From: a virus
Lineage: Duplodnaviria > Heunggongvirae > Uroviricota > Caudoviricetes
Virus record (IMG/VR): IMGVR_UViG_3300046006_001304
Strand: one strand, 5' to 3'
Length of the DNA stretch: 28,133 bases
The position numbers were made by a program, and so were the translations under genes. Positions within the stretch are counted from its first letter, which is position 1. Each line of letters begins with the position of its first letter. The notes under the pieces were generated by a model, which worked only from the letters and a program-made list of their open reading frames with translations, was not told the DNA's origin and made no database searches. Positions 15,035-21,030 of this stretch are shown one piece after another.

Positions 15035-15109
15035 TGGCGGTCTGTGGGGGAATCGAACCCCCGTAAGTGGATAGACAATCCACAGTAATAACCTCTATAC
15101 GAACAGACC
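15035..15109 (-). tRNA. tRNA-Asp(GUC), second copy
   Basis: GTGGA-TTGTCTA-TCCAC; G73, CCA. Confidence 0.92.
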
Positions 15110-15116
15110 TTAAACT

Positions 15117-15202
15117 TGGTGGAGTATCCTGGGATCGAACCAGGCGTGCCATTACGACGGCGGATTTACAGTCCACTGCATCACCATTGATGCTTCTACT
15201 CC
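15117..15202 (-). tRNA. tRNA-Tyr(GUA)
   Basis: GTGGA-CTGTAAA-TCCGC; long variable arm; A73, CCA. Confidence 0.95.
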
Positions 15203-15210
15203 ATGCTTAA

Positions 15211-15239
15211 ATTATAACACTCTCCCTCTATGATGTCAA
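15211..15239 (-). promoter_or_regulatory. sigma70-type promoter immediately upstream of tRNA-Tyr, embedded in an inverted repeat
   Basis: TTGACA-17 nt-TATAAT. Confidence 0.75.
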
Positions 15240-15470
15240 CCGCGTCGTAGGCGGAGGTGGAAAGTGTTTATTAAAGCATACTCGGCTTGTGACCTTATCC
15301 CCTAAACATTCTAGTTTCGGAATATGCTTTAATAACTAGTATTTTCTTCCCACAAGAGGGAATGCCATCCACTAGTCCGCCCGTTCGCTACGTGTTTTAA
15401 GTGCGTAGCAGAGTCCTCGTTACTCTATATTCACACTTTGCGTCAACGACTGCCTTGGCAATCTCAGCGT

Positions 15471-15508
15471 TAAAAACAAAAAACCCCAGGGTTTTAATCC
15501 TAGGGTCC
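15471..15508 (-). terminator. intrinsic terminator/attenuator
   Basis: GACCCTAGG-8 nt-CCTGGGGTT stem followed by TTTTGTTTTT. Confidence 0.8.
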
Positions 15509-15538
15509 TTGAAGTTTCGAAATGTATTAAGTTGTTAC

Positions 15539-15679
15539 TTAACCATCCCAGCCCTCCCGGACCCTGGTAATCTCTGGTGTGCGATCATATGATAGACTAT
15601 TAATCGCTAACCAGCAAGAGGCTATAACGCCTGCCTGTTTTGGCATCGGATTAAAATGATGTCTGTTAAATGATTGCAT
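15539..15679 (-). CDS. putative attenuator leader peptide (46 aa)
   Basis: MQSFNRHHFNPMPKQAGVIASCWLAINSLSYDRTPEITRVREGWDG*; lies between promoters and terminator; contains CCAGGGTCC, complementary to the terminator 5' arm. Confidence 0.7.
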   Translation of the reverse strand: MQSFNRHHFNPMPKQAGVIASCWLAINSLSYDRTPEITRVREGWDG

Positions 15680-15736
15680 TTTGGTTCTCGTTTACTCTCT
15701 TAAAATTTACTAGCGGAATGCTAGTGTCTTGTGTTA

Positions 15737-15765
15737 ATTATAGTGTCTTTCAACACCTCTGTCAA
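15737..15765 (-). promoter_or_regulatory. sigma70-type promoter for leader and tRNA array
   Basis: TTGACA-17 nt-TATAAT. Confidence 0.85.
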
Positions 15766-15818
15766 CATGTTTTGGCTAACTACAAAAAATATTTATCTCT
15801 TGCTGTTAATTAGTTTCT

Positions 15819-15847
15819 ATTATAAGAGTATTTATATCTCTTGTCAA
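15819..15847 (-). promoter_or_regulatory. tandem sigma70-type promoter with an internal T4-late-like TATAAATA
   Basis: TTGACA-17 nt-TATAAT; spacer contains TATAAATA. Confidence 0.8.
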
Positions 15848-15879
15848 GAACTATATGATAATGTGGTATTTTTACAACT

Positions 15880-16368
15880 TTAGGTTCGAACCGCCCCGAC
15901 TAAGTGTAATCTTGGTTCCTCAGAACAGTTCATAAATGAGTGGAACCGTGTGGTATCAGTTAAGTAAACATTGTTTACTGCCAAGTGGTACGGGGAAATT
16001 TCTTTAAAAGTAAAATAGCATTGACTGTTAGTTATTAATGGAATATGAATGCGAGGGCTTTCATCTTTGTGCATGCTGTAACATGCGTAGGGATTCAACC
16101 ACATCAGTCGTGTTTTAAATAATTTGTATTTGTTAATTAGCTCTTCAAATACAGTATCTTTAAAAAATGGATTTAAAATTGTTGAGGCAAATTCATCACC
16201 GCTACTTCGACCAACCGCACTCGCCCAAACGTCTTCGTTTATTTTATGTTGTAGACCAACTTGTTTTCCCTTAAATCCATAGTCGGCCCAAATCATATTA
16301 GGCTCGAGTCTAGTGTACTCATCTATAATTGGGGTGACATTGATTGTGTCAAGTATTTTTATTAGCAT
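15880..16368 (-). CDS. Asp/Asn beta-hydroxylase-like 2OG-Fe(II) oxygenase
   Basis: YSMHKDE.PRIHIPLITN...DTTRFHSFMNCS...RLHLV. Confidence 0.8.
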   Translation of the reverse strand: MLIKILDTINVTPIIDEYTRLEPNMIWADYGFKGKQVGLQHKINEDVWASAVGRSSGDEFASTILNPFFKDTVFEELINKYKLFKTRLMWLNPYACYSMHKDESPRIHIPLITNSQCYFTFKEISPYHLAVNNVYLTDTTRFHSFMNCSEEPRLHLVGAVRT

Positions 16369-16408: not shown

Positions 16409-16543
16409 TTAGAATGCCATTTCTTCGTATTCGTCTTTACCTACTCCGCATTCTGGACACTCAAAAGTTGCTGGAAGTTCATCCCATTTGCCTTCTAGTT
16501 CTTCATCGTGGACATGTCCACATACAATACATACGTGTTCCAT
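16409..16543 (-). CDS. rubredoxin
   Basis: Hand translation MEHVCIVCGHVHDEELEGKWDELPATFECPECGVGKDEYEEMAF: CxxC...W..LP..F.CPxCG..K. Confidence 0.92.
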   Translation of the reverse strand: MEHVCIVCGHVHDEELEGKWDELPATFECPECGVGKDEYEEMAF

Positions 16544-16992
16544 TATAGTGCCTCCAAAACTTGTTTATAAGCATTAGCATGGCGTTGCTCAACTTTTTGT
16601 AGAGCGGCAAAACGCTTTTCTGCTTTGGCTAATACTTGGGCAAATTGTTCTGCGTGTTCTTTGCTTTCTTCAATTTGATGACCTGCTTCAAAGGCAGCTT
16701 TAGTATTACCTTCGATCTCTGCGGCACGTTTAAAGTCTGGATACATTGTAGTGAATTCATATGTTTCACCCTCGATAGCTTTTTCTAAACATTCTTTAGT
16801 TGTTGGCTTACCGATGAGCAATTCTAAATGGCCCCATGCGTGTAGCAGTTCTTGATCTGCTGTATGTTCAAAATGTTTAGCAACATCTTCATACCCTTCT
16901 TCACGAGCAATCTTTGCAAAATAGCGATACTTAGTATGTGCTTGACTTTCACCTGCGAAAGCGGCCTCTAAGTTTTTAATTGTAATTGACAT
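16543..16992 (-). CDS. rubrerythrin (ferritin-like di-iron domain)
   Basis: NLEAAFAGESQA..KY..FAKIAREEG...E..HA...GETYE...MYP...E..HA; start MSITIK with GGAG SD. Confidence 0.92.
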   Translation of the reverse strand: MSITIKNLEAAFAGESQAHTKYRYFAKIAREEGYEDVAKHFEHTADQELLHAWGHLELLIGKPTTKECLEKAIEGETYEFTTMYPDFKRAAEIEGNTKAAFEAGHQIEESKEHAEQFAQVLAKAEKRFAALQKVEQRHANAYKQVLEAL

Positions 16993-17094
16993 AGTGTCTC
17001 CTTGTGTGTTTGTGCTATTATATAGCCTATTAAACTCCAAGGTCAATAGTTTTTCACTATAATTATTTCTATTAGGCTTATAGCTTTGTTTAAT

Positions 17095-17119
17095 AAAGAA
17101 ACCCGCCGGAGCGGGTTCT
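17095..17119 (-). terminator. intrinsic terminator after tmRNA
   Basis: AGAACCCGC-TCCG-GCGGGTTTCT-TTATT. Confidence 0.8.
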
Positions 17120-17495
17120 GCTATTTTGGATGACAAGGTATAACTACCTCGCAAGTGCTGTTTCTTAGGCAGCTAGTGCAAATGCGTCATCGTTTAAGGC
17201 GACGTCGACTTGCATGTACTTGAATGTATTTGCGTTTGCATTTACGATTTTTGTATTTTACGTGACCCCACGTGTTGAGTCGTTATCCTATCTCACCCTG
17301 TCGAAACCATGGCAGGCCCATTTAAACACACTTTGGTTTATTAAGAGTTATAGCTATGCTAAAGAGCTCCTGGGATACCAAACCTGATCTTTTTACAGAT
17401 TCAAGTATGCTTAGGTGGACCTGGCGGGAGTCGAACCCGCGTCCAGAACGCCTTACTTTACAACTTTGTCCATTCAAGGACTACAACAATTCCTT
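17120..17495 (-). ncRNA. ssrA: circularly permuted (two-piece) tmRNA
   Basis: Acceptor piece ...GGACGCGGGTTCGACTCCCGCCAGGTCCACC (3' end ~17414) precedes a ~94-nt spacer and the coding piece starting GGGCCTG..TTTCGAC (17319); G3:U70; tag ANANTFKYMQVDVALNDDAFALAA* at 17165-17239; outer limits approximate. Confidence 0.9.
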
Positions 17496-17563
17496 ACATA
17501 AAAACATGTATCAAAACAAATATAACAATTAAAACTGTTACAATGAATTGATACGCTTTCATT

Positions 17564-20318: not shown

Positions 20319-21030
20319 TAGCAATAAATTCTGCTTCGGGTATACGGGTACGAGTATTCTTACTGCCCAGTACTACAACAATTCTGCGTCCAATCTCAGT
20401 GTCCATCATTATAACAACGCATCCGCCCGACGCATTAATAAATCCAGTCTTGCTAACTACAAAGTCGTGACGCTTGCCTATACTAGGATTAGTGTTATGA
20501 AATATAAACCATTTCTTTCTAATTTTAATTTTAACTTCGCTAGTACGTGAAGCTAACACAATCTCTGGATATTTTGCAGCTTCCATTATAATGGAAATTA
20601 AATCTTCAGCAGTACTAATATTCATTAGATTAAGCCCACTAGATTCAACAAAACGAGTTTTTGTTAAACCTAATGATTCTACTTTATTGTTCATTGCTCT
20701 AACACAAGATGCCGAACCGCCTGGGTAGTGTTTACATAAATCTAAACTTGATCGATTGTCTGATTTAACCAACGCTAATTGTATCATCTCCCCCCGTGTA
20801 TAGGGTTTAATATATTCATTTAAATCTTGTTTAGCATCTAACACAACCATGGCCGTGACAAGTTTAGTTATACTGGCAATACTTCGTTGTTGGTCAGTAT
20901 TTTCTCCATCTATAATCTTACCTTTGCTGTCTGCTACTAACCAGCTTTTAGCAGTAAGCGTTATGCCGCTTGATGGACTACTTACTAGTAGCGCGAAAGA
21001 TACCATCCCAATCTTTAGGAAGTTTAACAT
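20308..21030 (-). CDS. peptidase S11 (D-Ala-D-Ala carboxy/endopeptidase, PbpG-like)
   Basis: SITK (SxxK), SDN (SxN), KTG motifs; N-terminal signal-like segment. Confidence 0.9.
   Translation of the reverse strand: MLNFLKIGMVSFALLVSSPSSGITLTAKSWLVADSKGKIIDGENTDQQRSIASITKLVTAMVVLDAKQDLNEYIKPYTRGEMIQLALVKSDNRSSLDLCKHYPGGSASCVRAMNNKVESLGLTKTRFVESSGLNLMNISTAEDLISIIMEAAKYPEIVLASRTSEVKIKIRKKWFIFHNTNPSIGKRHDFVVSKTGFINASGGCVVIMMDTEIGRRIVVVLGSKNTRTRIPEAEFIATNF

Follow-up and report, generated by a model that had tools for sequence, protein, structure and literature searches.

The DNA analyzed here is a window of 28,133 nucleotides (nt) from the IMG/VR virus record IMGVR_UViG_3300046006_001304. The element under study is a leader in front of a large array of transfer RNA (tRNA) genes, comprising two promoters, a 46-codon open reading frame (ORF), and an intrinsic terminator with an alternative fold. 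The window is part of a 46.8-kb contig with a completeness of 13% according to CheckV, which marks the contig as a fragment of a very large phage. Near-identical DNA is present in lake-water metagenomes of many studies. The source is an uncultured lake-water giant phage, and the element is common to well over 100 relatives. All features relevant to the switch are located on the minus strand of the window.

Two promoters precede the leader, P1 (15819-15847) and P2 (15737-15765), both of them perfect TTGACA-17-TATAAT sequences and both already assigned to the sigma-70 type in a first-pass annotation of the window. The transcription start predicted for P2 lies near 15730 and is directly followed by a stem-loop in the 5' untranslated region (UTR; 15709-15725), which is paired in the minimum free energy (MFE) fold. 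Relatives keep a hairpin at this site with differing stem sequences, as read by eye, and it is probably a stabilizer of the 5' end. About 50 nt past the predicted start, the leader ORF begins (15539-15679), an open frame of 46 codons plus TAA, found as annotated, which encodes all 20 amino acids and contains an internal Met. An A-rich region (15680-15700), whose purine tract (GAGA) is placed 6-9 nt 5' of the ATG, is conserved in relatives and may serve translation start.

Close to the end of the ORF, codons 39-41 provide strand a (AGGGUCC, 15559-15565), the 5' strand of a putative antiterminator. It pairs with strand b (GGACCCU, 15502-15508), which is common to the antiterminator and to the 5' arm of the intrinsic terminator (15471-15510). 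The latter was confirmed behind the ORF with a stem-loop at 15510-15479 (12 pairs including G-U, 8-nt loop) and a U6-G-U5 tail, the U tract reaching to ~15471. Within the antiterminator domain, GAGG (15553-15556), belonging to a Shine-Dalgarno-like GGAGG, pairs with CUUC (15514-15511) to form the inner helix P1b, and a middle hairpin (15518-15550) contains the stop codon (15541-15539). The bases ACCCU, five of the seven of strand b, are used by both folds, so that antiterminator and terminator exclude each other as had been claimed. The pairing had originally been drawn between CCAGGGTCC (15567-15559, codons 38-41) and GGACCCTAGG (15508-15499) with seven Watson-Crick pairs, an A bulge, and two more pairs. 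All of these exist in the window, but only the seven core pairs are conserved (56 of 56 distinct relatives), while the two outer extra pairs are not.

Beyond the terminator, the window holds a structured noncoding RNA (15245-15470; fold z = -3.15) of ~200-230 nt, which is the first read-through product in this DNA. It is followed by a third promoter of perfect consensus, P3 (15211-15239), which lies 3' of the terminator and bypasses the switch in the window. The first gene of the array is a tRNA-Tyr (GUA) with a long variable arm (15120-15202), recognized by the Rfam tRNA model with 33.4 bits and missed by ARAGORN; 30 further tRNAs follow, extending to position 367. ARAGORN itself reported 30 tRNA genes and a transfer-messenger RNA (tmRNA) in the window, to which Rfam added the tRNA-Tyr and, for the tmRNA, the permuted/betaproteobacterial class.

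Relatives were collected by a profile search with the leader-peptide alignment, resulting in 88 viral loci (80 of them retrieved) and, by the same search, 199 metagenomic loci (80 of them retrieved). Pairing was evaluated on 56 distinct DNAs, the tree and the promoters on 52 leaders or loci, and the tRNA surroundings on 49 viral loci; the peptide set consisted of 91 distinct leader peptides at first and of 131 after addition of the metagenomic loci (40 new). In the protein collection, the leader peptide has 39 homologous clusters, all without an assigned name, and it matched no Pfam or PHROG family. Among the cultured phages of INPHARED, searches with the region (blastn) and the peptide (tblastn) yielded no relative carrying the element, the sole blastn match being the tRNA-Tyr of Limnohabitans phage DC31. 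An alignment of homologous loci, one of the checks suggested along with the first-pass annotation, revealed conservation of the ORF, the translation start region, the alternative of folds, and the location in front of the tRNA genes (at least 88 viral and 199 metagenomic loci). A lack of conservation of ORF and pairing, which the first-pass annotation had named as refuting its reading, was thus not observed.

Taken alone, the window is only suggestive, since both the pairing and the composition of the leader could be due to chance. In dinucleotide-shuffled ORFs, a 7-nt complement to the terminator 5' arm occurred in 3.7% of the cases and within the last 45 nt in 1.2%. The comparison with relatives makes the observation solid. 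The motifs [A/G]GGGU[C/U]C and G[G/A]ACCC[U/C] pair at 7/7 positions in all 56 distinct DNAs, 52 of which are fully Watson-Crick. The outer a:b pair is A-U in 42, G-C in 10, and G-U in 4 sequences and never A-C (Fisher p = 3e-8, without correction for relatedness), and the U-to-C change in strand b, which also improves the terminator stem, is seen only with a G partner. A double compensation was detected in one relative (L060), in which GGGGUUC faces GAACCCU and a C-G pair became U-A through changes in both strands. These counts derive from a motif-anchored recount, as the MAFFT alignment shifts the G-class motif by one column and lets helix 1 appear 92% paired; for the outer pair, both ways of counting agree. 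The metagenome scan contributed 40 extra peptides, yet no additional type of a:b covariation. Strand a is translated in two phases, as R-V-R (41 sequences) or x-G-S (15); being kept across both, it points to a constraint on the RNA and not on the peptide. In 54 of 56 relatives, 14-18 nt separate the end of strand a from the stop codon; strand b begins 22-32 nt past that codon.

The remaining parts of the switch are conserved as well. The 25-nt core of the terminator is letter-identical in 20 viral contigs, and its stem is 99.6% paired in the 56 relatives, with changes from U-G to C-G or U-A and compensated variants in three loci (L096, L097, and L030). The inner 4-bp helix (GGAG with CUCC or CUUC) is predicted in nearly all relatives. 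The middle hairpin is present in essentially all of them, built from unrelated stem sequences and carrying the stop codon in its 5' arm or apex, and a short local hairpin just 3' of strand a was recognized by eye in many. A hairpin within the ORF (15614-15574), considered as a candidate pause or protector element, showed invariant or non-covarying pairs (G/T/A against C/T at random). Scanning 15100-15900 against Rfam, at the gathering threshold as well as at E <= 10, returned only tRNA-Tyr and no T-box (RF00230); the weak rows TCV_H4, NsiR1, and HIV_GSL3 were discarded as chance-level.

Separately, a peculiar arrangement was observed at the end of the ORF. The Shine-Dalgarno-like GGAGG stands 5-9 nt before the last sense codon, which is NUG followed by UAA in ~45 of 56 relatives, and the window holds an out-of-frame AUG-GUU-AAG-UAA at this site (15553-15539, minus strand). 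This resembles a start-stop arrangement, which might retain a ribosome that is terminating or give a second one a place to bind.

Energetically, the complete leader adopts the a:b pairing and not the terminator in its MFE fold (z = -5.0 versus shuffles). In the window, the antiterminator fold was calculated at -75.4 kcal/mol versus -70.7 kcal/mol for the terminator fold, and across the relatives the antiterminator fold is favored in 50 of 56 by a mean of 3.0 kcal/mol. Such a near-balance would be expected of a switch with read-through as its default in the absence of a ribosome. The effect of translation was modeled by folding the RNA 3' of the ribosome at equilibrium, the leading edge of the footprint being placed 12 nt beyond the first base in the A site. 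For A-site positions at codons 2-34, an antiterminator probability of 0.98-1.0 was obtained; from codon 37 to the stop, the terminator probability was 0.998, the flip occurring at codons 35-36. Consequently, smooth translation is predicted to result in termination, and an early stall or no translation in read-through. Folding with and without a ribosome footprint had been named as a check in the first-pass annotation and gave the logic proposed there; in vivo, the position of the ribosome would likewise set the fold. Metatranscriptome contigs from several studies cover the leader, and one of them bridges the terminator (15365-15521), which is a weak hint only. A gap in the metatranscriptome data at 15782-16000 and a lower depth past the terminator were not used, considering that these contigs are pooled from relatives and may include DNA carry-over.

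The occurrence of all 20 amino acids within the first 36 codons, i.e., before the antiterminator, was borne out in the window, and the complete set recurs in 83 of 91 distinct peptides of the first collection and in 119 of 131 of the enlarged one (10 with 19 amino acids, 2 with 18). By chance, all 20 would be found in 2-3% (2.7%) of random 46-48-aa peptides with the phage's own composition, and of the real 48-aa windows of its proteins 1.5% hold the full set. Shuffling residues within alignment columns reduced the all-20 share from the observed 91% to 34 ± 4% (maximum 47% in 2000 trials), so that it does not reflect simple inheritance. Exactly one copy each of Cys, His, and Tyr is present in about 90% of the members, Lys is mostly single-copy as well, and Cys was found in at least 10 different alignment columns. 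If the usual position is empty, another copy is present (Tyr 23/23, His 27/27, Cys 59/64), whereas a second copy next to an occupied position is found in only 7/68 (Tyr), 8/64 (His), and 2/27 (Cys). On a tree of the 52 leaders, this amounts to at least 12 (Cys), 8 (Tyr), 13 (His), and 18 (Lys) changes of arrangement, with 1, 0, 0, and 1 losses of presence, respectively. The internal Met, requiring the elongator tRNA, occurs in 91 of 91 peptides, and all 20 amino acids are located upstream of strand a in 48 of 52 leaders. Together, these patterns indicate that the full set is kept by selection, with rare residues relocating rather than vanishing.

On the codon level, no run or cluster of regulatory codons is present in the leader, which holds the complete amino acid set instead. 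Nineteen codons are each found in at least 90% of the leaders, including UUA, AUA, AGA, AAA, ACA, UCA, CCA, and CAA; the A-ending conserved codons are those read by U34 tRNAs encoded in the array itself. The count of 30 distinct codons among the first 36 was reproduced, but the diversity thereby implied is not unusual (expected 28.2 ± 1.7, p = 0.22), and we dropped the "pan-codon" idea as evidence.

The frame is open in all of the >130 variants, and indels are either in frame or compensated in a way that restores the frame and the same stop codon; the 131 distinct peptides span 46-55 aa. A dN/dS of ~0.6, high for a conserved protein, suggests relaxed constraint on the peptide sequence itself, and synonymous codon variation is found at Leu, Ser, Gly, Val, and Arg sites. 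At codons ~12-13 and ~19-20, AUG-CCC (M-P) and AUA-GCC (I-A) have exchanged positions in 13 of 52 leaders, by which the internal AUG and the AUA codon are both kept in every leader. The possibility of an arrest peptide (W...DR.PE, comparable to TnaC or SecM) was rejected by reasoning only. A stall at P35/E36 would mask strand a and cause termination, and since normal translation would have the same outcome, an arrest peptide would yield no switch.

The place of the element relative to the array does not vary. All 49 viral loci that were scanned carry a tRNA array on the same strand, beginning 270-1100 nt 3' of the leader; tRNA-Tyr is often its first gene, and almost no tRNA is located upstream. 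Near-consensus promoters in tandem are found 5' of the leader in all 52 relatives, and about 47 have two. Between terminator and tRNAs, 14 of 52, the window included, have a promoter that agrees with the consensus at 11 or all 12 positions, and 38 lack one. The module and its position at the array head are thus conserved, and in most relatives it is the only obvious strong entry. The caution of the first-pass annotation that P3 leaves control of the array only partial was justified for the window, but does not extend to most relatives.

Two further products are encoded between terminator and array. In relatives (L026-L104), the structured RNA is located between the terminator, or a small ORF, and the first tRNA. 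Its hairpin with the 7-nt loop AACGAGG is present in 50 of 52 loci with at least 10 covarying stem variants, accompanied by a second hairpin with the loop CACUUAAAACA, a conserved stretch AAACGGGCGG, and a long-range helix UAUUAAAGCAU/AUGCUUUAAUA. Of the 31 pairs predicted by RNAalifold, 23 show compensatory changes, and no Rfam match was obtained for 15245-15470. About two-thirds of the relatives additionally carry a gene for a helical protein of 50-58 aa between terminator and structured RNA, with a good ribosome-binding site and starting 8-14 nt past the terminator U tract (L028, L036, L030, L053, and others); it is absent from the window. The protein falls into two or three subfamilies (e.g., M-E-Q-I-D-Y...F-S-V-N) without a match to a Pfam or PHROG family, and would be the first read-through product where its gene is present.

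Of the features that characterize a leader attenuator, a promoter-proximal ORF with a start region, an intervening terminator, an exclusive antiterminator, and an antiterminator 5' strand near the end of the ORF were found at this locus, but neither a run of regulatory codons nor a 1:2 protector. We consider the element to be probably a ribosome-mediated (leader-peptide) attenuator at the entry of the array, which would sense shortage of any aminoacyl-tRNA. In this model, two strong promoters would drive a leader transcript of ~250 nt. Left unhindered, the nascent RNA would fold into a long imperfect hairpin, in which AGGGUCC near the end of the ORF is paired with GGACCCU. The terminator 5' arm would thereby be sequestered, and the polymerase would continue into the structured RNA and the tRNA genes. 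A ribosome translating smoothly would pass codon ~35 and reach the stop codon inside the hairpin, mask AGGGUCC, and allow the terminator to form and transcription to end. Shortage of almost any charged tRNA would stall the ribosome early in the all-amino-acid segment, including its internal Met, and lead to read-through. More phage tRNA would be made as a consequence, closing a supply-on-demand loop. The natural signal may be tRNA shortage or damage, codon demand, or general translation failure.

Several points weigh against this interpretation. The a:b covariation comes from a single variable pair and from one sequence with a double compensation; the remaining five pairs are invariant and thus uninformative, and only a few events may lie behind the G class of the outer pair. 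A hairpin of the 1:2 type (protector or pause) was not found, and no segment upstream of strand a pairs with it, so that the model offers no means of keeping RNA polymerase and lead ribosome in step. The Shine-Dalgarno match of the leader is weak. Glu usually appears just 3 codons upstream of strand a, at the edge of the sensing window, and with a standard footprint a stall at Glu may not free the antiterminator. The codon diversity is ordinary (p = 0.04-0.48 in other family members). The sensor model alone explains neither the residues W23, D32, and R33, which are invariant, nor the D-R-T-P-E-I codons, which are invariant even at synonymous sites; the hairpin within the ORF, which might account for them, does not covary. 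Downstream, the first gene past the terminator in most relatives is the small protein gene and not a tRNA, and P3 can feed the array independently of the switch in the window. Finally, extra tRNA would be of no help where charging and not tRNA is limiting. The general sensor of tRNA damage or translation failure postulated in the first-pass annotation is nevertheless supported by all tests possible on sequence data, namely conservation, covariation, the kept composition, and the footprint folding; the placement of Glu, the ordinary codon diversity, and P3 in the window set limits to it.

Among the alternatives, a translation-coupling switch without amino acid logic has to be weighed first. The element would then report whether ribosomes initiate on the leader and follow the RNA polymerase, e.g., upon host shut-off or ribosome inactivation or as a timing device for early and late infection, and the composition would be a by-product. 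The ribosome-free default is compatible with this, as any loss of translation, not just a stall at a codon, would give read-through; so are the unremarkable codon diversity and the GGAGG before a stop codon lying inside a hairpin, which fit a tuning to ribosome arrival or dwell time. What it leaves unexplained is why Cys, His, Tyr, Lys, and the internal Met were kept over at least 50 rearrangements with 2 losses and why 48 of 52 leaders have all 20 amino acids ahead of the switch point. In addition, the composition of the upstream ORF (uORF) of whiB7 decides which starvations are sensed (PMC10274678). Overall, we regard a pure coupling device as unlikely.

An ordinary small-protein gene with its own terminator, of which the 46-aa product (e.g., a short amphipathic or membrane-associated peptide) is functional, appears rather improbable to us. 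The hairpin around the stop codon would in that case merely stabilize the mRNA 3' end or tune translation termination, and the composition would be incidental. Small ORFs are abundant in phage tRNA regions, and the conserved ORF with invariant W23, D32, and R33 besides further near-invariant residues, its moderately hydrophobic center, and the good terminator behind it would all suit such a gene. Its dN/dS, however, is higher than is usual for a conserved functional protein, and the subfamilies read the C-terminal third in different frames, with the nucleotide motif retained. A mere 3'-end hairpin would also not be expected to compete for five bases of the terminator stem and to be kept slightly more stable than the terminator. 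The composition maintained by compensation, the fixed place before tRNA arrays (49 of 49 relatives), and the lack of any Pfam or PHROG match argue in the same direction.

A noncoding or riboswitch-like RNA with an untranslated ORF, in which a ligand, protein, or tRNA on conserved internal loops (e.g., CAAACUUCAA) sets the fold or the leader of ~250 nt, once terminated, serves as a trans-acting small RNA, as terminated attenuator RNAs such as rnTrpL reportedly do in other bacteria, would account for the strong nucleotide conservation, the conserved and covarying folds, and the fold z-score of -5, but is very improbable in view of a frame open in >130 variants with frame-restoring indels and the same stop codon, synonymous variation at Leu, Ser, Gly, Val, and Arg sites, a conserved ATG and A-rich start region, the lack of any Rfam family (T-box included), and an all-20 composition that would be meaningless without translation.

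The closest precedent of the attenuator proposed here is the uORF transcription attenuator of mycobacterial whiB7 (wblC). Its uORF in M. smegmatis encodes every amino acid except Cys, and whiB7 is induced there by deficiencies of amino acids, tRNAs, or aminoacyl-tRNA synthetases for 18 of 20 amino acids (PMC10274678). Deprivation of an amino acid represented in the uORF leads to antitermination, removal of the Trp or His codons abolishes the matching response, and loss of the start codon raises basal read-through and expression (PMC10274678). Both systems share a promoter-proximal uORF followed by a terminator/antiterminator alternative in which a stall gives, or in the phage would give, read-through, and in both the composition of the uORF would set the sensing, unlike the codon runs of trp or his. 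The rise in read-through upon loss of the whiB7 start codon matches the default-on energetics computed for the phage leader. In contrast to the phage leader, with its full set of 20 under selection, the whiB7 uORF is not kept complete: its length and composition vary, Ala is enriched, and several amino acids are missing from it in M. tuberculosis (PMC10274678). Furthermore, the whiB7 attenuator controls a cellular transcription factor that serves drug tolerance and alanine supply (PMC10274678), whereas the phage leader is viral, heads a tRNA array, and shows no sequence relationship. It does not belong to the whiB7 family, being located on a phage contig with a betaproteobacterial-type tmRNA and followed by a noncoding RNA and tRNAs.

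The classical enterobacterial leader-peptide attenuators (trpL, hisL, pheL, leuL, thrL, and ilvL) comprise 14-32 codons with runs of one to three regulatory codons, the thr and ilv leaders sensing two or three amino acids (multivalent attenuation). They have in common with the phage leader a short ORF, presumably translated in the phage, an intrinsic terminator, an exclusive antiterminator, and a 5' strand that a ribosome at the leader end masks or, in the phage, is predicted to mask. The phage leader differs by its length of 46-50 codons and by a complete amino acid set in place of runs, as well as by its proposed control of tRNA genes and not biosynthetic enzymes. In classical leaders, the 1:2 protector/pause hairpin ensures that a lack of translation leads to termination, while read-through is predicted for the phage leader. 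The pyrBI leader ORF has a similar length of 44 codons, runs through the terminator, and also lets the distance between polymerase and lead ribosome decide on termination. There, a closely following ribosome prevents termination; the phage ORF stops 22-32 nt before strand b, and an arriving ribosome is predicted to cause termination.

Leaders that sense drugs are related in another respect. The mef/mel leader is said to sense a ribosome-targeting drug through transcription attenuation, and vmlR, lmo0919, and PA5471.1-armZ are further drug-sensing attenuation leaders. Here too, a ribosome stalled on a short leader favors the antiterminator, and trouble in translation switches on the downstream gene. 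These leaders, however, depend on arrest-prone peptides and a drug, control resistance genes, and do not require a complete amino acid set. T-box riboswitches likewise sense tRNA status and choose between terminator and antiterminator upstream of translation-related genes; in contrast to the phage leader, they bind one specific uncharged tRNA directly, contain no ORF, and are recognized by the T-box sequence and a specifier loop.

The surroundings of the element hold further features, all on the minus strand. Just upstream of promoter P1 lies an Asp/Arg beta-hydroxylase-like (cupin) ORF (15880-16368); synteny via this 162-aa gene was considered and found uninformative, as its homologues are placed elsewhere relative to tRNA arrays. 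The phage-encoded permuted tmRNA (17074-17513; Rfam tmRNA_permuted 105.9 bits, beta_tmRNA 94.6 bits) specifies a 24-residue tag. A tmRNA stands at the equivalent relative place in six relatives, 1.3-2.7 kb upstream of the leader in several. Downstream of it, a rubrerythrin-like ORF (16543-17154) overlaps the 3' end of the tmRNA by ~80 nt, so that the TTG start given for this ORF probably lies farther upstream than the true one. A dual-specificity phosphatase-like ORF is located within the tRNA region (11922-12359). Finally, the phage contig contains a bacterial-looking gene run (20978-27718) with a CsgG-like curli secretion channel (26516-27718), two curlin-repeat proteins (25508-26335 and 23266-24414), a FecR-domain protein (24411-25505), and a CHASE2-adenylate/guanylate cyclase (20978-23038).

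Large phage tRNA arrays are usually viewed as transcribed constitutively, early or late. A full-text literature search retrieved no description of such control for tRNA genes or phage tRNA arrays. A translation-sensing switch at the array entrance represents a concrete, testable mechanism for on-demand tRNA and would extend leader-peptide attenuation from amino acid operons and drug-stress regulators to tRNA genes and viruses. The evolutionary signature is unusually clean, with the mere presence of every amino acid in ~47 residues being selected while single Cys, His, Tyr, and Lys codons relocate. As a compact module of ~250 nt, the leader could also serve synthetic biology as a sensor of translational capacity.

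More tentatively, and with less confidence than we place in the attenuator itself, the element may be part of a self-regulating tRNA supply circuit of giant phages that doubles as a counter-defense trigger. The tRNAs produced would exert negative feedback on transcription of the array, and any tRNA cut or depleted by a host anticodon nuclease would cause instant de-repression of the whole set together with the structured RNA. If true, the element would provide the first known case of a transcription attenuator acting on tRNA genes and the first leader peptide of which the complete amino acid content is itself the selected trait. For the phages carrying it, on-demand tRNA would address codon-usage mismatch, the decay of host tRNA, and anticodon-nuclease defenses.

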